A stretch of 64,000 bases of DNA from an uncultured Vicinamibacteraceae bacterium. GTDB taxonomy: Bacteria > Acidobacteriota > Vicinamibacteria > Vicinamibacterales > UBA8438. Positions 2,310 through 15,190 of this stretch are shown in pieces. The number at the start of each line of letters is the position of its first letter. Position 1 is the first letter of the stretch. The position numbers and the translations under genes were made by a program. The notes under the pieces are model-generated. The model did not search any database. It was not told the origin of the DNA and worked only from the letters and a program-made list of their open reading frames with translations. The stretch covers positions 20,220 to 84,219 of the forward strand of contig CAZJYU010000003.1 of assembly GCA_964550305.1 (NCBI GenBank), written 5' to 3'.

Positions 2310-2386
2310 CGGGGCGTGGCGCAGCCTGGCAGCGCGCCTGCTTTGGGAGCAGGAGGTCCCGAGTTCGAACCTCGGCGCCCCGACCA
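2310..2386 (+). tRNA. tRNA-Pro (anticodon TGG)
   Basis: A 77-nt cloverleaf folded by hand: acceptor CGGGGCG/CGCCCCG, D stem GCGC/GCGC, anticodon stem CCTGC/GCAGG with loop TTTGGGA (anticodon TGG), T arm CCGAG-TTCGAAC-CTCGG, encoded 3' CCA. Confidence 0.95.
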
Positions 2387-2418: not shown

Positions 2419-3735
2419 GTGTTGCCCGCGTTGACACCCCGGATCGCGCGCCGCGCGGCGGGGTGGTCGATCGCCGGCATGCTGGTGCTGACGATCGCCG
2501 GCGCCGCGTGGCCGGCGGTGCCGGGGCTGGCAGCGCCGGTACTCGCCTGGATCGCGCTGGCGCTGCTGTGGCCGGGGATCGACCGGCGGCAGCAACTGCA
2601 AGCGTTGTTGTTTGTCGCCGCGGGTGTCGCCGCTCTGGCCTGGGGCGTGAGTCGCGGAGCGCCACTCCGGCTCGACAGCCTTCTGGGCCAGAACCAGCCG
2701 ATCCTGTCGATGCTCGCCTCCGTCACCCTGCTGCGCCTCCTGAACCGTCCACCGCGAGAGGACGAACCGGAACTGCCACGTGGCCTGGGCGCCTACCTCC
2801 AAAGCGTGGCGGGGGTGCACGCAGTCGGCTCGATCATCAATATTTCCGCCGTCATCATCATGGCCGACCGGCTGGCGCGGGCGCAGCCGCTGGGCTACGG
2901 GCAGGCGCAGCTCCTCAGCCGGGCATTCAGCGCCGTCGCCTTCTACTCGCCGTTCATCGGCGGCGTTGCTCTGGCGCTCTCCTATACGCCCGGGTCAAGC
3001 CCCCTCGTGATGATGCTGTTCGGGATACCGCTCGCCGCCGCCGCTTTCCTGCTGCTGTACTGGTTCGCAGGCAGAGGCTGGGCCGGCAGAGTCGAGAGCT
3101 TCCGCGGGTACCCGCTGCATATGCGGGACCTTAAGGTGCCGCTGGCGCTGGCCGCCGCAGTGCTCCTGGCCGCCGTGGCAGCGCCCCGTCTGTCGGTGCT
3201 TGCCCTCATCACGATAGTCACGCCAGTGGTGGTCCTGCCTGTCCTGCTCCGGCGGAGCGGGGTACCGGGTCTCCGTCCCGCCCTGACGGAATACGTGCGG
3301 GAACGCGCCCCGCAGATGGGCGGTGAACTGGCGTTGTTCCTCGGCGCCGGGACGCTGGCGGCGGGCATGGTGGCGGCCACCGCGGGCTCCGGCGACTGGC
3401 TGTTGCTGCCGCGGCTGGATGCTCTCCACGCGAGCCTGCTCGTGCTGATCTTCATCGCGACGTCCCTGGTCTGCATCCACCCTGCGGTGCTGGTGGGCAT
3501 CACGGTGGCGCTGGCGGAAACGACGGTCGCCGACCCAACACTGCTCGCGACGACGTTCGCGATGGGGTGGGGCCTCGGCTGCGCGGTCAATCCGTTGTCC
3601 GGCGTGAACGTGGTGCTCGCCACCCGTTACGGCGCCGACAACTGGCGCATCGCGCGGAGCAATATCGGATTCAGCGCCGCGCTGTACCCGGTGGCGGCCG
3701 GACTGCTCTATCTGTACGAGTTCTTCCGCCTGTAG
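2419..3735 (+). CDS. polytopic integral membrane protein, possible ion-transporter-superfamily permease
   Basis: 438-aa ORF with 10 or more hydrophobic segments and Gly-rich re-entrant-like motifs (GAGTLAAG, NPLSGVN). GTG start 33 nt after tRNA-Pro. No specific family recognised. Confidence 0.65.
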   Translation: MLPALTPRIARRAAGWSIAGMLVLTIAGAAWPAVPGLAAPVLAWIALALLWPGIDRRQQLQALLFVAAGVAALAWGVSRGAPLRLDSLLGQNQPILSMLASVTLLRLLNRPPREDEPELPRGLGAYLQSVAGVHAVGSIINISAVIIMADRLARAQPLGYGQAQLLSRAFSAVAFYSPFIGGVALALSYTPGSSPLVMMLFGIPLAAAAFLLLYWFAGRGWAGRVESFRGYPLHMRDLKVPLALAAAVLLAAVAAPRLSVLALITIVTPVVVLPVLLRRSGVPGLRPALTEYVRERAPQMGGELALFLGAGTLAAGMVAATAGSGDWLLLPRLDALHASLLVLIFIATSLVCIHPAVLVGITVALAETTVADPTLLATTFAMGWGLGCAVNPLSGVNVVLATRYGADNWRIARSNIGFSAALYPVAAGLLYLYEFFRL

Positions 3736-5743: not shown

Positions 5744-6499
5744 TCAGTCGCCCGCGAGACGGGCACTGTACTCGCGGATGCGCTCCGCATTGGCGCCGAC
5801 ATCGCTCCGGCCCACTCTCGACTTGGAGCGGACATCAATGCGGCTGCCGGGGCCATCCGGGCGGACGCGGATGACGACGTCGTCCTTGAAGCCGTACCAG
5901 AAGGTCGTGTCGGTCGCTTCTATCCGCCCCGCCGCGGCATCGTCCGCCACCAGCTCCCACCCCATTGCCTCGGCTGCGGCCAGCGCCTGCGAGAACGCTT
6001 CGGCGGGCGGTGCGTCCAGCATCACCGAACGGAGATCCGGATATCCCTCGCGCTGCTGTTCGGCAACTGCGGGGTCGTACTCCGGAGGGTTCGGGGCGTC
6101 GGCCCGGAGGGGAAGAATGGCGACGAAGGACGGCGGATCGTCGGTGTCGGTCGTGATGTCATGGATCGGCGGGACCGATTGGGCAATCGCCTGCTGCTCT
6201 GCCGGGACCATGTAGCAAACCGCTCCCAACGCGGCGGCGACCAGGCCGGCCACGACGTTCTGCCAGTGCAGCCGCCGGAACGCGACCCAGATCGCCGCGA
6301 TCAACGCGATGCCCGCCGCGCCCGCCGAGATGAGAGCGCCCCAGCGGAGAAGGGTGAAGGACATCCCGAGTCCGAGCAGGCCCGTGCGGTAGCCCAGGGC
6401 GGCGGCGAGCACGAGCAGAGCGCCGACGGCGACGGCGCCGGTGCCGGCGCAGACAACGGGCGACCAGGTGCGGGGCGTGGTTCCGGGCGTGCTGGCCAT
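5744..6499 (-). CDS. DUF1499-like membrane-anchored protein (paralogue B)
   Basis: Same architecture and near-identical C-terminal domain as 1516-2283 (...FWYGFKDDVVIRVRPDGPGSRIDVRSKSRVGRSDVGANAERIREY). GGAGCC lies upstream of the ATG. The gene starts 40 nt downstream of the ilvC stop on the same strand. Confidence 0.7.
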   Translation of the reverse strand: MASTPGTTPRTWSPVVCAGTGAVAVGALLVLAAALGYRTGLLGLGMSFTLLRWGALISAGAAGIALIAAIWVAFRRLHWQNVVAGLVAAALGAVCYMVPAEQQAIAQSVPPIHDITTDTDDPPSFVAILPLRADAPNPPEYDPAVAEQQREGYPDLRSVMLDAPPAEAFSQALAAAEAMGWELVADDAAAGRIEATDTTFWYGFKDDVVIRVRPDGPGSRIDVRSKSRVGRSDVGANAERIREYSARLAGD

Positions 6500-6539: not shown

Positions 6540-7553
6540 CTATACGTCTTCCTTGAGCGTCACCGCGTCCAGGAACGGCATCATCGCGCGGAGCTCGGCG
6601 CCCACCTCTTCGATCTGGTGCGCCTGCTCCTGCCTGCGCTGCGCCATGAACCAGGGGCGGCCCGCCTTGTCCTCGGCGATCCACTTGCTGGCGTACGTGC
6701 CCTCCTGAATGTCCTTCAGGATCTGCTGCATCGCCTGTCGGGTCTCGTCCGTCACGACGCGCGGGCCACCGGTGTAGTCGCCGTGCTCGGCCGTGTCGCT
6801 CACCGAGTAGCGCATGTAGTTGAGGCCGCCCCGGTAGAAGAGGTCCACGATCAACTTCAGCTCGTGCATGCACTCGAAGTACGCCACTTCGGGCTGGTAA
6901 CCGGCTTTGACCAGAGTCTCGAAACCCGCCTTCACGAGCGCGCTGACGCCACCGCACAGCACCGCCTGCTCACCGAACAGATCCGTCTCGGTTTCCTCCG
7001 CGAACGTGGTCTCGATAACGCCCGCGCGCGTCAGGCCGAGCGCCTTGGCGTACGACAGCGCAAGCGCCTTGGCGCTGCCGGTCGCGTCCTGCTCCACCGC
7101 GATCAGGGCCGGCGTGCCGCCCCCCTCGAGAAATACCTCGCGCACCCGGTGACCGGGCGCCTTGGGGGCGATCAGGGTGACGTCCACGTCGGGGGGTGGC
7201 TGAATCGTCTTGAAGCGGATGTTGAAACCGTGCGCGAACATCAGCATCTTGCCCGCGTCGAGATGCGGCGCCACCTGCTCCGCGTAGATGCCCGCCTGCG
7301 TCGTGTCCGGCGTCAGCAGCATGATGACGTCGGCCCATGCCGCCGCCTCGGCGCCTGACACGACCGTCAAGCCTTCTGCCTCCGCCCTGGCCGTCGACCG
7401 GCTCCCCTCGTGCAGCGCCACGCGCACCGCGACGCCACTCTCCCTGAGATTCAACGCATGCGCGTGTCCCTGCGAGCCGTAGCCGAAAACCGCCACCCTC
7501 CGCCCCTGGATCAGCCCGAGGTCGGCGGAGTCGTCGTAGTAGATCGTCGCCAT
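6540..7553 (-). CDS. ilvC: ketol-acid reductoisomerase
   Basis: [40 protein letters not shown]...[10 protein letters not shown]... is unmistakably class I KARI. It is the last gene of the ilv cluster. Confidence 0.95.
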
Positions 7554-7622: not shown

Positions 7623-8219
7623 TTACACCGAGTACGAAACGTCGGGGTCGTCGTCGGTTCCGCCCGACGCCGCCCCGGACGGGCGGTTCGCCGGCCGGAC
7701 CGGGAGGTCGGCCGGATCGATCATCACGCTGTGCGCGCCCCGCACCATGGCTACCCGGCCGGTCCGCACGATCTCGAGGATGCCGTAGGGCCGGAGCACC
7801 TCCAGCAGACCGTCAATCTTCTCCTCCGTGCCGATGGTCTCGATCACCATCGCGTCGGGCCCGACATCCACCACACGCGCCCGGAACGCGTCGGCAAGCT
7901 GCATGACGTGGGTCCGCGTCTCCGCCGTCGCCCCCACCTTGACCATCGCCAGCTCCCGGAACATCACGGCGGCGTCGGTTACATCATGCACGCGCAGGAC
8001 GTTCACCAGCTTGTAGAGATTCGCCTCGAGACGACGTCCGCCGATCGGGTCCGTGCGCACGACGATCGTCATCCGTGACACGCCGGGCGCTTCGGCATGG
8101 CCGACCGTAAGCGACTCGATGTTGAACGCGCGCCGCCGGAAGAGCGAGGCGACCCGGTTCAGCACGCCCGGCTTGTCCTCGACCCAGACGACGAACGTGC
8201 GGCGTGGCTGTGCGGCCAT
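7623..8219 (-). CDS. ilvN: acetolactate synthase small (regulatory) subunit
   Basis: Track ORF 7623..9686 is a fusion artefact. The real gene starts at ATG 8217-8219: MAAQPRRTFVVWVEDKPGVLNRVASLFRRRAFNIESLTVG... (ACT domain). 198 aa. Confidence 0.9.
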   Translation of the reverse strand: MAAQPRRTFVVWVEDKPGVLNRVASLFRRRAFNIESLTVGHAEAPGVSRMTIVVRTDPIGGRRLEANLYKLVNVLRVHDVTDAAVMFRELAMVKVGATAETRTHVMQLADAFRARVVDVGPDAMVIETIGTEEKIDGLLEVLRPYGILEIVRTGRVAMVRGAHSVMIDPADLPVRPANRPSGAASGGTDDDPDVSYSV

Positions 8220-8254: not shown

Positions 8255-9976
8255 CTACTCGTCGTCCGCCGTCTCGACAATCGGCGCCGGGCTGGGCCGG
8301 CGAATCATATGGTGCAGGTCGGCGCCGGCCGGCACCATCGGGTAGACCGTGTCTTCCTGCTCGACCTGGAAGTCGATCACCACCGTACGGTCGTCGTCGC
8401 GGGCTCGCTGCACCGTCGGTTCCACCTCGCCGCGGGTCTTGACCGTGGCGCCACCCAAGCCAAAACACTGAGCCAGCCTGGCGAAGTCCGGGCTCAGCAG
8501 CGGCGTAGCGGCGTAACGGCGCTCGTAGAAAAACTCCTGCCACTGCCGCACCATGCCGAGATAGCCGTTGTTGATGATCGCCACGTTGATCTTGATCCGC
8601 TCCTGCGCGATCGTGGCGAGCTCCGCCATCGTCATCTGAAAGCCACCGTCGCCCGCCACCACCCACACTTCGGCATCCGGCCTCGCCAGCTTTGCGCCGA
8701 CCGCGGCCGGCAACGCGAAGCCCATCGTCCCGAGGCCGCCCGAAGTAATCAGCGTGCGCGGGTCGTTGTGGTGGTAGTACTGCGCCTCCCACATCTGGTG
8801 CTGGCCAACATCGGTCACGACGATTGCCTTTCCGTCGGTCATCCGCCAGATGTCGTTGATGACGTGCGCAGCGTAGAGGTGCCCACTGTCGGGAAGGTTC
8901 TGGATGTCGCGGACGGCGACGTCCCCTTTCATTTCGCGGATCGTCTCGAGCCACGCCTCGTGACGGTTCTCCTCGACCAGTGGCGCCAAGTCTTCCAGCA
9001 CCGCGGACAGGTCGCCGGCCAGGGCGACATCCACCCGGACGTTCTTGTGGAACTCCGCCGGATCGATGTCCACATGCACCTTGCGCGCATTCGGCGCGTA
9101 GGTCTTCACGTTGCCGGTGACCCGGTCGTCGAAGCGCATGCCGAGCGCCAGCAGGAGATCCGCCTCCTGAATGGCGGCATTGACCCACGACTCGCCATGC
9201 ATCCCCATCATTCCCATGTTGAGCGGATGCTGGGCCGGAACGCCGCCGATGCCAAGCAGCGTCATCGCGATCGGGATGTGCGCCCGCTCGGCCAGCTCCC
9301 GCACCTGTCCCATGGCGCCCGACAGGAGCACGCCGTGACCGGCCAGGATCACCGGCCGCTTGGCCCGGTTCACGAGGTCGGCCGCCCTCCGGTACTCGTC
9401 GTCGGACGCGCGCAGATGCGGCCGGTAGCCCGGCAGCTTCACGTCGTCCGGCCCGAACTGCAACTCGGTCGACGCCTGCTGCGCGTCCTTCGTGATGTCC
9501 ACAAGCACGGGGCCGGGGCGGCCGGATCGCGCGACGTACATCGCCTCGCGAATCACCGGCGCGATCTCTTCGACGTGCGACACCAGATAGTTGTGCTTGG
9601 TAATCGGCAGCGTGACACCGGTGACATCCGTCTCCTGGAACGCGTCCGACCCGATCAGCCGGCTCCCCACCTGACCGGTGATGCACAGAATGGGCGAAGA
9701 GTCGAGCATTGCCGTCGCGATGCCGGTCACCATGTTGGTGGCGCCCGGACCGGAGGTGGCCACCGCCACGCCCACCTGGCCGCTCGCGCGGGCGTAGCCA
9801 TCCGCCATGTGGGTCGCCCCCTGTTCGTGGCGAACCAGAACGTGGCGAATCGGGTACTCCAGCAGCGCGTCGTAAGCAGGCAGGATTGCCCCGCCGGGAT
9901 AGCCGAAGACGGTGCCGACACCCTCCCGCACCAGCGCTTCCCAGATGATCTGCGCGCCCGTTCTCATCGAAGCCAT
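8255..9976 (-). CDS. ilvB: acetolactate synthase large (catalytic) subunit
   Basis: MASMRTGAQIIWEALVREGVGTVFGYPGGAILPAYDAL...GPGATNMVTG...GLGTMGFALPAAVGAK...GDGGFQM are ThDP/FAD AHAS motifs. Confidence 0.95.
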   Translation of the reverse strand: MASMRTGAQIIWEALVREGVGTVFGYPGGAILPAYDALLEYPIRHVLVRHEQGATHMADGYARASGQVGVAVATSGPGATNMVTGIATAMLDSSPILCITGQVGSRLIGSDAFQETDVTGVTLPITKHNYLVSHVEEIAPVIREAMYVARSGRPGPVLVDITKDAQQASTELQFGPDDVKLPGYRPHLRASDDEYRRAADLVNRAKRPVILAGHGVLLSGAMGQVRELAERAHIPIAMTLLGIGGVPAQHPLNMGMMGMHGESWVNAAIQEADLLLALGMRFDDRVTGNVKTYAPNARKVHVDIDPAEFHKNVRVDVALAGDLSAVLEDLAPLVEENRHEAWLETIREMKGDVAVRDIQNLPDSGHLYAAHVINDIWRMTDGKAIVVTDVGQHQMWEAQYYHHNDPRTLITSGGLGTMGFALPAAVGAKLARPDAEVWVVAGDGGFQMTMAELATIAQERIKINVAIINNGYLGMVRQWQEFFYERRYAATPLLSPDFARLAQCFGLGGATVKTRGEVEPTVQRARDDDRTVVIDFQVEQEDTVYPMVPAGADLHHMIRRPSPAPIVETADDE

Positions 9977-10016: not shown

Positions 10017-11684
10017 TCAGTTCGTTACCGCCCCACCCGCCGCCGACGAGACGAGCCGCGCGTACTTCGCCATCACTCCGCTCCGGAACCGCGGCTCCGG
10101 CGGCTGCCACGCCGCGAGGCGCGACGTGATCTCCGCCGCGTCCACTTCGAGCTCCAGCCTGCGGTTCCGTTCGTCGAACAGGATCGGATCGCCGTCCCGC
10201 ACCACCGCGATGGGACCGCCCGACGCCGCCTCCGGCGCCACATGGCCTGCCATCATGCCGCGCGTCGCGCCGGAGAAGCGGCCGTCGGTCAGGAGCGCTA
10301 CCGACTCGCCCAGACCGGCGCCGACAATGGCCGCGGTCACGGCCAGCATCTCACGCATCCCCGGCCCTCCCTTGGGACCCTCGTACCGGATCACCACCAC
10401 GTCGCCCGGCCGAACCCGTCCTGCCCCGACCGCTCCGAACGCCGCTTCCTCGCTGTCGAACACGCGCGCCGGACCCCGGTGCGTCGACGGCTCGTGGCCC
10501 GCCACCTTCACCACGCATCCTTCGGGGGCCAGATTCCCCTTCAGGATCACCAGCCCCCCCGTGGGAGTTATCGGGTCGGTGACCGAACGGACCACCTCCT
10601 GCCCCTCGGTCTCCACGGTCGCGCGCGCCACCTCGCCGATGGTCTGGCCCGTCACGGTCAGGGCGTCCTCCCGCAACAGGCCCGCCTCCTGCAGCCGCTT
10701 GGCCACCAGACCGATGCCGCCGGCACGATACATGTCGGTGGCCACGAAGCGGCCGCCGGGCTTGAGGTCCGCCAGCAGCGGGGTCCGCTCACTTACCCGG
10801 TCGAAGTCGTCGATTGCGAGATCGACTCCGGCCTCGTGCGCTATCGCCAACAGATGCAGCACGGCGTTCGTCGAACCGCCGGTCGCGGCGACGGCCGCGA
10901 TGGCGTTGTCGATCGCGGCGCGGGTCACGATCCGGCGGGGGCGGAGATCCTGAGAGACGAGATCCATCACCAGCTCGCCCGCCCGACGCGCGGCATCCGG
11001 CTTCTCGTCGGACATGGCCGGCACGCCGTTCGCACTCATCGGCGATACGCCGAGCAACTCGCAAACCGTCGACATCGTGTTTGCCGTGAACTGCCCGCCG
11101 CACGCACCCGGCCCGGGACACGCGACATCCTCCAGGGCGCAGAGTTGCGCGTCGGTCATCCGCCCCGCCGCATGCGCGCCGACCGCCTCGAAAACATCCT
11201 GGATCGTGACGTCGCGTCCTTCGTACCGGCCCGGCTCGATCGAGCCGCCATAGAGCACGAGTCCGGGGATGTCGAGGCGCACCAGCGCCATCACGCCTCC
11301 GGGGATCGTCTTGTCGCACCCCACGAGGATGACGATGCCGTCGAAGAGGTTGCCGCGCGCCACCAGTTCAATGGAATCGGCCACCACCTCGCGGCTGACG
11401 AGCGAGGCTTTCATTCCCTCGCTACCCATCGTGATGCCATCGGAGATGGAGACCGTGTTGAACTCCATCGGCGTGCCGCCGGCGGCGCGGATCCCGGCCT
11501 TCACCTGAGCGGCGAGGTCGCGCAGGTGATAGTTGCAGGGACCGATCTCGATCCAGGTGTTCGCGATACCGATGATGGGCCGTGCGAGATCGGCATCGCT
11601 GAAGCCGACCGCCTTCAGCATCGCGCGAGCCGGCGCGCGGCTCGGTCCGTCGGTGATCGCCGCGCTGCGTCGTTCGGGAGCCAT
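10017..11684 (-). CDS. ilvD: dihydroxy-acid dehydratase
   Basis: [54 protein letters not shown]...CDKTIPG...ATDGRFSG is the IlvD/Edd family. Start placed at ATG 11684. The track start at 11747 would lie inside the terminator hairpin of the leader. Confidence 0.9.
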
Positions 11685-11705
11685 TCTGTCTGTCACCAGC
11701 CTCAT

Positions 11706-11740
11706 AAAGAAAAAGCCATCATCCGCTGTCGGATGATGGC
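11706..11740 (-). terminator. intrinsic terminator of the ilv attenuator
   Basis: The minus strand reads GCCATCATCCG-ACAG-CGGATGATGGC followed by TTTTTCTTT: an 11-bp perfect stem, a 4-nt loop and a U-run, ending about 20 nt before the ilvD ATG. Confidence 0.75.
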
Positions 11741-11773
11741 CCTTCAAGGTCGCCGTGGGTGCGGATCAGGACA

Positions 11774-11851
11774 TCATCCGGTTGCGGCCGGCGTAATGGC
11801 GCCGGCCACGCGAACGATGACGACGATGAAACGCTCCCACAGAGCCGCCAT
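11774..11851 (-). CDS. ilv operon leader peptide (25 aa, Ile/Val-rich)
   Basis: Minus-strand ATG at 11851 gives MAALWERFIVVIVRVAGAITPAATG* with five consecutive Ile/Val codons (11813-11827). Its stop codon is embedded in CGGAUGAUG, which duplicates the 3' arm of the downstream terminator. Confidence 0.7.
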   Translation of the reverse strand: MAALWERFIVVIVRVAGAITPAATG

Positions 11852-11887
11852 CTGCTTCCGGGCAAGGCCCGTGCCGCTGTTCAGGCC

Positions 11888-11918
11888 ATTCTACTCCTCC
11901 GCGGCGCTGGCGCGTCAA
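11888..11918 (-). promoter_or_regulatory. candidate sigma70-type promoter for the ilv leader
   Basis: Minus strand has TTGACG (11918-11913), a 19-nt spacer, then TAGAAT (11893-11888), about 37 nt upstream of the leader ATG. The spacer is longer than optimal. Confidence 0.3.
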
Positions 11919-11931
11919 GTGGCGGGCGCGC

Positions 11932-12138
11932 GTGGTGTATGATCCCGCGGCGATGTTCAGGCTGGTGACGACCGTCCGGGGCGGCGCGGTGAATCTCCCC
12001 GCCGCGTATGCGAAGTACGCGTCCGTCGACGAAGCCCGAAACGCGGCCAAGGCGCTCATGCACGAGCATCAGCGGGTGGTCCGCGTCATGATCGTCGAGG
12101 AGCCTGACCGTTTCGTGGAGTGGCTCGACCGCTCCTGA
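11932..12138 (+). CDS. small hypothetical protein (68 aa)
   Basis: Divergent from the ilv leader. Strong GC3 bias across the ORF (MVYDPAAMFRLVTTVRGGAVNLPAAYAKYASVDEARNAAKALMHEHQRVVRVMIVEEPDRFVEWLDRS). GTG start, or ATG at codon 8. Confidence 0.5.
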   Translation: MVYDPAAMFRLVTTVRGGAVNLPAAYAKYASVDEARNAAKALMHEHQRVVRVMIVEEPDRFVEWLDRS

Positions 12139-12171: not shown

Positions 12172-12660
12172 CTACCCGGGCCGGATCGTGACCCCAACCC
12201 CGATCCAGAGCAGCGGTACGCCTGCGTCTCGCGCCTGACCTCCCCTGAACTCGGTGAAGAAACCGTTCTCGTGGCCAAACCCAAACACGTAGTTCCAGCC
12301 CCCGCTGACATGGGTGCCGTCGACATCCATGAACCGCGCGATGTTCACACCTGGCCCGAGACCCTGATGGATGCGCCATCCCGTCCCGCCCAGCGTGACC
12401 CGGTAGATGAACTCGCCGCCAATGGCCGCGATTCGCCAGCCGGCGCCGAAGGCGCCGTTAATGCCCGGTCGAAGGACGAGCTGATCGGAGACGAGCGGGA
12501 ATTCGATGTGCGAGCCGACGTAGATCTGCTCCGGATCGAACGCCGCTCCCGCCTGGAAGCCAACGCCTTGCGCGGCTGCCGCGAGCGGCAGGAACCATGC
12601 CGCGGCAGCACAGGCGACGAGGAGGCGGCGCCCATGCGCCACCTTAGTCGATCGCTTCAA
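12172..12660 (-). CDS. small outer-membrane beta-barrel-like protein
   Basis: Signal peptide (...LLVACAAAAWFLPLAAAAQG), then alternating Gly/aromatic beta-strand pattern. 162 aa. Confidence 0.55.
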   Translation of the reverse strand: MKRSTKVAHGRRLLVACAAAAWFLPLAAAAQGVGFQAGAAFDPEQIYVGSHIEFPLVSDQLVLRPGINGAFGAGWRIAAIGGEFIYRVTLGGTGWRIHQGLGPGVNIARFMDVDGTHVSGGWNYVFGFGHENGFFTEFRGGQARDAGVPLLWIGVGVTIRPG

Positions 12661-15113: not shown

Positions 15114-15190
15114 TGGCGCGCCCGGCAGGACTCGAACCTGCGACCCTCGGTTTAGAAGACCGATGCTCTATCCAGCTGAGCTACGGGCGC
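15114..15190 (-). tRNA. tRNA-Arg (anticodon TCT)
   Basis: Reverse complement GCGCCCG-TA-GCTC-AGCTGGATA-GAGC-A-TCGGT-CTTCTAA-ACCGA-GGGTC-GCAGG-TTCGAGT-CCTGC-CGGGCGC-G-CCA. 77 nt, anticodon TCT, encoded CCA. Confidence 0.95.

Follow-up and report, generated by a model that had tools for sequence, protein, structure and literature searches.

A putative leader-peptide transcription attenuator upstream of ilvD-ilvB-ilvN-ilvC in an uncultured Vicinamibacteraceae bacterium, and its sister leaders in Acidobacteriota

The ilv leader and its alternative structures

The stretch of DNA analysed here, referred to as the window, comprises 64,000 nucleotides (nt) from an uncultured Vicinamibacteraceae bacterium of the phylum Acidobacteriota (assembly GCA_964550305.1, contig CAZJYU010000003.1, positions 20,220 to 84,219). 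On its minus strand, the genes ilvD-ilvB-ilvN-ilvC are preceded by a short leader that contains a small open reading frame (ORF) and a terminator hairpin. Leader-peptide attenuation is textbook knowledge in Proteobacteria and has been documented in Actinobacteria; the Acidobacteriota are an abundant, mostly uncultured soil phylum in which gene regulation is largely unknown. Our analysis indicates that the leader is very probably a ribosome-mediated (leader-peptide) transcription attenuator, which would set read-through into ilvD-ilvB-ilvN-ilvC by the supply of charged Ile-tRNA and Val-tRNA. Its position upstream of these genes had been claimed in an earlier reading of the DNA without database searches (hereafter the sequence-only reading), and NCBIfam matches now identify all four of them.

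10017..11684, minus strand (ATG at 11684): ilvD, dihydroxy-acid dehydratase, the first gene under the proposed control (NF002068 / TIGR00110, E-value 4e-246)
8255..9976, minus strand: ilvB, acetolactate synthase large subunit (TIGR00118, E-value 3e-222)
7623..8219, minus strand: ilvN, acetolactate synthase small subunit (NF008864, E-value 4e-55)
6540..7553, minus strand: ilvC, ketol-acid reductoisomerase (NF004017, E-value 3e-162)

The sequence-only reading had described a 25-codon minus-strand ORF at 11851-11774, a run of five Ile/Val codons at 11827-11813, a stop codon inside CGGAUGAUG (11780-11772), a strong inner hairpin at 11807-11786 and a terminator at 11740-11706 that could give way to an antiterminator. 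We recovered the ORF to the base and the codon run at the same place, identified the stop as the UGA at 11776-11774, found that the hairpin extends to 11809-11784 and confirmed the positions of the terminator and its alternative. The resulting anatomy of the leader is listed below, in the order of transcription.

11913..11918, minus strand: -35-like hexamer TTGACG of a putative leader promoter
11888..11893, minus strand: putative -10-like hexamer TAGAAT, 19 nt from TTGACG
11855..11859, minus strand: weak Shine-Dalgarno-like GGAAG, 3 nt 5' of the leader ATG, a candidate read from the sequence
11774..11851, minus strand: leader ORF of 25 codons plus UGA (ATG at 11851, TGA at 11776-11774), predicted product MAALWERFIVVIVRVAGAITPAATG
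11813..11827, minus strand: candidate regulatory run AUC GUC GUC AUC GUU (Ile-Val-Val-Ile-Val)
11811..11819, minus strand: segment 1, CAUCGUUCG, the partner of segment 2 in minimum-energy folds
11807-11786, minus strand: inner hairpin GGCCGGCG/CGCCGGCC, from sequence and folding, inside the 1:2 pairing
11784..11809, minus strand: the same hairpin as extended by folding, GUGGCCGGCG / CGCCGGCCGC with loop CCAUUA, enclosed by the 1:2 pairing
11768..11780, minus strand: segment 2, CGGAUGAUG(UCCU), 5' arm of the antiterminator (CGGAUGAUG at 11780-11772, with the leader UGA inside)
11730..11743, minus strand: segment 3, (AGG)GCCAUCAUCCG, 3' arm of the antiterminator and 5' arm of the terminator (GCCAUCAUCCG at 11740-11730)
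11726-11729, minus strand: terminator loop ACAG
11715..11725, minus strand: segment 4, CGGAUGAUGGC, 3' arm of the terminator, from sequence and folding
11706..11714, minus strand: U-run UUUUUCUUU of the intrinsic terminator

The two hexamers would place the transcription start near 11881. Including the window, 13 of the Vicinamibacteria-type loci examined carry a hexamer pair of this type (TTGAC(T/G) or TTGAG, 18-19 nt, TAGAAT), placed 20-44 nt 5' of the leader ATG. Many relatives, and not the window, also carry an A+T-rich, partly palindromic element (ATAATTATAA / AACTATTAAT) just 5' of the -35 box (L001, L002, L008, L010, L013, L018, L026 and the Terriglobia loci); it may serve as an UP element or bind a regulator.

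The 191-nt leader folds at -95.5 kcal/mol, compared with -72.9 +/- 4.6 kcal/mol in dinucleotide shuffles (z-score -4.9; 0/200). Its parts are likewise more stable than their shuffled counterparts: the terminator folded alone, with a stem extension, reaches -24.3 kcal/mol (z -6.8), the inner hairpin by itself -22.6 kcal/mol (z -5.1), the 1:2 structure with the inner hairpin, folded separately, -35.4 kcal/mol (z -4.3), and the 2:3 antiterminator, in which CGGAUGAUG(UCCU) pairs with (AGG)GCCAUCAUCCG, -19.9 kcal/mol (z -2.3). In these folds, the antiterminator uses the 5' arm of the terminator and the two are mutually exclusive. The succession of a 9-nt word, its reverse complement and the word again was obtained in 0.025% of 20,000 dinucleotide-preserving shuffles of 11706-11918; the arrangement of the leader is more than chance.

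According to the sequence-only reading, the Ile/Val codon run can itself pair, as CGUCAUC, with segment 2. Such pairing does fold, and what changes is the register: the one of lowest energy uses CAUCGUUCG (11819-11811), 3 nt downstream of CGUCAUC. The 3-nt periodicity of the sequence allows both registers. In the minimum-energy fold of the window, all 8/8 bases of segment 2 pair with the V-I-V-R codons, and the 1:2 pairing that sequesters segment 2 is the predicted state of the untranslated leader. An outer helix between codons 2-7 and the spacer 11765-11750 also appears in the full-length fold; it is missing from the consensus structure of the relatives. A scan for consensus promoters and terminators missed the terminator at 11740-11706; because the folds are unambiguous, we treat this as a scan artefact, which is likely to reflect an extension of the stem by G-U and A-U pairs that consumes the U-run.

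The effect of a translating ribosome was modelled by blocking a 30-nt footprint around its A site and folding the nascent RNA up to the terminator loop, a modelling that is thermodynamic only. Folding with and without masking of the leader ORF reproduced the expected alternation: with the A site at any of codons 9-15, constraint folding of the window gave 9/9 antiterminator pairs, and with the footprint on the stop codon it gave 0/9, an outcome that follows from the constraint imposed. In the stalled-ribosome model, segment 3 is predicted to pair with a stretch overlapping the leader stop in 30/31 relatives. In the modelled nascent RNA without a ribosome, segment 3 pairs with 6 nt around the leader start codon. 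The leader start region, AGAUGGCGGC (window 11844-11853, minus strand), resembles segments 2 and 4.

Conservation of the leader upstream of ilvD

We compared the 80 best ilvD loci from species-representative genomes. A GCCAUCAUC ... GAUGAUGGC hairpin with a U-run was found 5' of ilvD or pheA-ilvD in 39/80 loci, all of them labelled Vicinamibacteria, Terriglobia/Acidoferrales or unclassified Acidobacteriota, and in none of the Nitrospira, Binatia, Chloroflexota and Dormibacterota loci among the 80. Upstream of every element lies a small ORF in which Val/Ile codons form a run, such as VIVIV, VVVVV, VILI or IVIV. The small ORF, the Ile/Val run and the alternative pairings, for which the sequence-only reading had proposed a search in relatives, are thus conserved at these 39 loci.

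The frame of the ORF is conserved together with its stop. The leader stop is the UGA inside GGAUGAUG in 28 leaders; in five other leaders, in which the UGA has been lost or the register has shifted, a different stop 3-8 nt off closes the same Ile/Val-rich frame. Across an alignment of 16 sequences, every gap between the run and the stop measures exactly 3 nt. When the segment-2 UGA, an anchor defined by the RNA and not by the peptide, is used to set the frame, this frame is the richest in Ile/Val/Leu codons in 72/80 distinct leaders, against one third expected by chance, and it contains a stop within the last 20 codons in 7 leaders, compared with 30 and 43 in the other two frames; the 80 leaders are interrelated, and these frame counts are not independent. 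The comparison supports the view that the leader reading frame is under selection in the relatives and that the ORF is translated.

An RNAalifold consensus of the relatives recovered the 1:2 stem, the inner hairpin and the terminator. In the inner hairpin, four pairs show changes on both sides. Over 37 sequences, 82% of alignment cells are paired in the antiterminator, a share that falls to 16-55% once the partner is shifted by 1-3 columns; compensatory changes occur in two of the antiterminator pairs (for example, GAAUGAUG opposite CAUCAUUC in L020 and L022). In the terminator, 93.8% of cells are paired and 5/11 of the pairs never vary.

Two groups of relatives depart from the arrangement in the window. 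In 9/39 carriers, the element lies about 900 nt 5' of ilvD (about 850-970 nt in L020, L022, L023, L026, L027, L034, L047 and L050). A prephenate dehydratase gene lies between the element and ilvD in both loci inspected (ORFs in L020 and L023, with the NCBIfam identification in L023), and blastx also placed such a gene behind the switch in the metagenome contigs L088, L101, L117, L124 and L172. The leaders of this subgroup are Val/Thr-rich, often with a single Phe right before the run (for example, FTVVVTVTV); a Val/Thr leader on an aromatic-pathway gene is unexpected. The Terriglobia-type ilvD leaders (L035, L036, L044, L046, L048, L049, L053, L067, L073 and L074) are longer, with 37-43 codons, and start about 110-160 nt 5' of the terminator with a conserved M..VAIS / AIT (GUC GCC AUC). 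In these leaders, the start of the ORF, and not the Val/Ile run, can pair with a longer segment 2, GAUGAUGGCGGCC.

The same switch before other amino-acid operons

A scan of metagenome sequences with the pattern GATG...GGCCATCATC...GRTGATGGC matched at least 120 contigs. As the pattern fixed the sequence of the switch, its constancy among these matches is by construction, and the informative part is the way in which the leader codons track the pathway. The first downstream genes were typed by blastx against the window proteins and the prephenate dehydratase of L023. A U-run stands behind 80 of the matches listed, and the counts and gene families given in this section likewise refer to the matches listed.

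ilvD as the first gene (blastx): 27
prephenate dehydratase as the first gene, then ilvD where there is enough sequence (blastx): 11
ilvB as the first gene (blastx): 2
ilvN-like gene as the first gene (blastx): 1
other gene or no match (blastx): 34
downstream sequence too short (blastx): 5

By NCBIfam, the 34 'other' cases include 2-isopropylmalate synthase, a LysR-type regulator, homoserine dehydrogenase, aspartate kinase, branched-chain aminotransferase, a type II HAD hydrolase and a CoA ligase. The leader codons differ among these classes in the following way.

leuA: Leu-rich leader stretch RLLLLALSVAIPGLVLAP (examples L140, L190, L138)
LysR regulator: Leu-rich leader stretch LALVLGVLLLSLGLLLGS (examples L122, L137, L175)
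aspartate kinase: Thr/Ile-rich leader stretches PTITTSITTTTTT; STITTITTTSITSIT (examples L152, L103)
ilvE: Leu/Ile-rich leader stretch LLLLSLLVIPIT (examples L179, L180)
homoserine dehydrogenase: Thr-containing leaders (examples L130, L145)

The CoA ligase gene has a Leu-rich leader with the same switch. The Val/Ile runs are conserved in the 54 ilvD-type leaders, whose best 10-codon window averages 3.9 Val, 1.6 Ile, 0.9 Leu and 0.5 Thr. Downstream of leuA, one Leu-type contig carries an ilvB with 75% identity to that of the window, and therefore the Leu-type leader belongs to the same lineage.

These observations suggest that the window element is probably a member of a modular attenuator family of Acidobacteriota, in which a near-invariant switch is combined with interchangeable leader peptides. 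The switch of such a family would consist of GGAUGAUGG bearing the leader UGA, GGCCAUCAUCC, a loop, GGRUGAUGGCC and a U-run. Its leaders would be of the Val/Ile type before ilvD or ilvB operons, Val/Thr before pheA-ilvD, Leu before leuA and LysR genes and Leu/Ile before ilvE, and, for the threonine pathway, Thr/Ile before aspartate kinase and Thr-containing before homoserine dehydrogenase genes. The mechanism itself is textbook, and the modular reuse of one switch is its newest aspect. The element may serve as a sequence-readable marker of Ile/Val sensing in Acidobacteriota, with the sister leaders appearing to be its equivalents for Leu and Thr, and thousands of acidobacterial metagenome-assembled genomes could have their amino-acid regulons annotated with a covariance model built on the switch. 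If the modular family is real, a whole amino-acid regulon of a poorly studied phylum could become readable from sequence.

The constancy of the motif raises the question of what preserves it. Complementarity of GAUGAU to Ile/Val codons (AUC, AUU, GUC and GUU) does apply in many Vicinamibacteria leaders; as a sole reason it is insufficient, because the Leu- and Thr-type leaders keep the same motif. An additional trans-acting factor that binds the motif seems an unlikely source of the invariance, and the evidence does not call for one. The switch also illustrates how three mutually pairing segments can freeze an RNA sequence across long evolutionary distances. The near-invariance of segments 2, 3 and 4 is unusual for a terminator and matches that described for attenuator segments with two partners (PMC1262725).

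Two further observations were made among the metagenome contigs. Type II HAD hydrolase genes lie behind the same switch in L081, L129 and L195 (and probably in L104 and L144), with leaders of 19-51 codons as called that have no branched-chain run and contain a single conserved Trp (AWL / MWL / GWV). Contig L137 carries two copies of the switch (3117-3176 and 3553-3611), 436 nt apart, on either side of a truncated LysR gene whose frame continues into the C-terminus of the second leader; this arrangement looks like a local duplication or rearrangement.

Proposed mechanism, alternatives and genomic setting

In the mechanism that we propose, transcription would start near the predicted site and a ribosome would translate the 25-codon leader behind RNA polymerase. 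When Ile and Val are plentiful, the ribosome would reach the UGA and mask segment 2, so that segment 3 would pair with segment 4 and the terminator would yield a transcript of about 170 nt. When Ile-tRNA or Val-tRNA is scarce, the ribosome would stall on AUC GUC GUC AUC GUU with segment 1 covered and, with the later codons of the run in its A site, with the 5' arm of the inner hairpin covered as well; the freed segment 2 would capture segment 3 once it is made, no terminator would form and the ilv genes would be transcribed. If the leader is left untranslated, segments 1 and 2 would pair around the inner hairpin, and termination would be expected to follow.

This 1:2 / 2:3 / 3:4 logic, already put forward by the sequence-only reading, is supported by the folding, the ribosome-footprint model, the conserved frame and the pathway-matched leaders. 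We regard the interpretation as supported because the leader shows, and the relatives conserve, every feature of a classical leader-peptide attenuator that can be tested in sequence. The elements, their folding energies and conservation, the conserved frame and the match between leader codons and pathway in the sister leaders were obtained directly; from them we infer the start site, the translation of the ORF, the kinetic competition of the structures and the response to amino acids.

Several points weigh against this interpretation. The Shine-Dalgarno-like GGAAG is weak and close to the leader ATG. The near-constancy of segments 2, 3 and 4 leaves little of the covariation that the sequence-only reading had proposed to look for among the relatives. 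Strong as the 1:2 pairing is in the window, folding predicts another state for about half of the relatives. Even with segment 2 free, the terminator (-24.3 kcal/mol) outcompetes the antiterminator (-19.9 kcal/mol) at equilibrium, and in the full-length RNA it is always thermodynamically favoured; therefore, the switch must operate kinetically, as the classical co-transcriptional model assumes. A similar-looking case also calls for caution: in the Streptomyces coelicolor ilvB leader, mutation of the candidate regulatory codons was reported to leave regulation unaffected (PMC1262725).

It is also conceivable that the terminator/antiterminator switch is set by a trans-acting protein or small RNA that recognizes the near-invariant CCAUCAUCC / GGAUGAUGG, with the small ORF being incidental or secondary. 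Such a factor would account for the motif itself: across 37 sequences, drawn from two acidobacterial classes with IlvD proteins about 70% identical, neither GCCAUCAU nor the UGGC of the terminator arms varies, a sequence conservation atypical of ordinary terminators, and the same motif stands before unrelated operons. However, the codon content of the leader shifts with the downstream pathway while the motif stays constant. A switch sensed by the ribosome predicts this variation, whereas an RNA-only or protein-bound switch needs no such change; one conserved switch with varied leader peptides is in this sense a natural experiment that supports ribosome sensing. The frame and the position of the stop are conserved as well, and the loop between the terminator arms ranges from about 3 to 9 nt in the relatives, unlike a fixed operator. 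Riboswitch and T-box models (ppGpp riboswitch, T-box) gave no match at the element, and conserved sequence in multi-pairing segments has already been documented for attenuators (PMC1262725). Taken together, control by a trans-acting factor in place of the ribosome is quite improbable.

The small ORF might alternatively act as an upstream ORF (uORF) that mainly affects ilvD translation or mRNA stability, in which case the hairpin would be an inefficient terminator in the host. Just 21 nt separate the U-run from the ilvD ATG, and reports exist of actinobacterial leader peptides that lack functional attenuation (PMC1262725). We nevertheless consider this very improbable, as a G+C-rich stem of 11 base pairs with UUUUUCUUU immediately behind it constitutes a canonical intrinsic terminator, the U-run after the hairpin is retained in every relative, and the hairpin does not overlap the ilvD start region.

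The leader could also be an independent small gene without control over ilvD, either encoding a functional hydrophobic peptide of 25 amino acids or acting as a small RNA in trans once terminated. The ORF is indeed conserved, and for Sinorhizobium both attenuator-derived small RNAs and trans functions of leader peptides have been described (PMC6614838, PMC7298713). Against this, peptide conservation is limited to the Ile/Val run and the part that encodes the RNA helices, whereas the N-terminal sequence and the length drift freely, and among the matches listed the element always lies directly 5' of amino-acid biosynthesis genes on the same strand. A trans role could add to the cis switch but would not replace it; an independent gene is most unlikely to be the explanation. 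A chance coincidence of terminator, repeat and open frame, to which the abundance of long open frames in G+C-rich sequence might lend itself, is next to impossible, being contradicted by the shuffle statistics and already refuted by conservation in dozens of genomes and metagenome contigs.

A leader-peptide attenuator thus remains the preferred interpretation, and it can be compared with known systems. The E. coli ilvGMEDA (ilvL) and ilvBN (ivbL) operons are controlled by leader-peptide attenuators. The window element resembles them in its short uORF rich in branched-chain codons, in the exclusive 1:2 / 2:3 / 3:4 pairings, in the intrinsic terminator before the first ilv gene and in the proposed use of ribosome position as the sensor. 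It differs from them in having no detectable sequence or covariance-model similarity, in a run of Ile/Val codons without Leu, in a stop inside segment 2, in the operon order ilvD-ilvB-ilvN-ilvC and in a switch sequence that it shares with leu-, thr- and ilvE-type leaders within its own phylum. To our knowledge, the enterobacterial attenuators are themselves unrelated in sequence to one another.

In Corynebacterium, the ilvBNC attenuator or ilvB-II motif contains a conserved uORF with branched-chain codons, for which transcription attenuation has been proposed or demonstrated (PMC10272879; PMC11857589). It shares with the window element a branched-chain uORF before ilv genes and its discovery by comparative analysis of intergenic regions. 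In contrast to the window, it belongs to another phylum, the first gene is ilvB and not ilvD, and a three-hairpin model has been applied; the Corynebacterium element is backed by reporter and mutational evidence, whereas that of the window is predicted from sequence and folding. The ilvB-OMG and Leptospira ilvB RNA motifs have been re-read, without genetics, as candidate uORF attenuators (PMC10272879). They too have a uORF before an ilv gene, theirs being rich in branched-chain and Thr codons; lineage and structure differ, and the window element has no Rfam match to them even at an E-value of 10. In actinobacterial and proteobacterial trp attenuators, complementary triples gGCC-rGCy-GGCC are conserved over large distances (PMC1262725). 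The antiterminator and terminator segments are similarly sequence-conserved here, as GGAUGAUGG-CCAUCAUCC-GGAUGAUGG; unlike in the trp attenuators, another amino acid and another motif are involved, and the motif is reused across pathways.

The sequence-only reading had also remarked that such leaders are rarely annotated, which agrees with the database and literature searches. The Rfam 15 covariance models yielded no leader or attenuator family at gathering score in the whole window; a search of 11600-12000 with E-values up to 10 gave no leader family and only chance-level matches such as Xoo2 and eeev_FSE, and eight related loci had no Rfam match. The full texts searched contained no account of ilv genes being controlled by leader-peptide attenuation in Acidobacteria; most subscription journals lie outside this coverage, and an earlier description is therefore possible.

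As for the genomic setting, the closest same-strand ORF upstream of the leader ends at 12172, about 430 nt off, and the upstream neighbours vary among the relatives (a different 436-amino-acid ORF in L023, for example); we therefore rejected the possibility that the hairpin is the terminator of an upstream gene. The plus-strand ORF at 11932-12138 (68 amino acids), divergent from the leader, was not counted as a gene; it has no family match and no relative in 200 loci. Within the window, GGCCATCATCC matches six times, compared with 2.1 expected, and 3/6 of these matches lie in the leader locus; the other near-matches (29653, 52617 and 56984) lack both a terminator and a uORF nearby and appear to be coincidental. 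A blastn search of plasmids gave no match. Two tRNA genes, at window 2310-2383 (plus strand) and 15117-15190 (minus strand), are the sole Rfam matches in the window. The best IlvD matches, with 86-88% identity, are from metagenome-assembled genomes of Vicinamibacterales/Vicinamibacteraceae, which places the source of the window among the acidobacteria of that order. Downstream of ilvC, one further gene may be part of the attenuated operon.

5744-6499, minus strand: DUF1499 gene, 40 nt 3' of ilvC, with the ribosome-binding site GGAAGGAG

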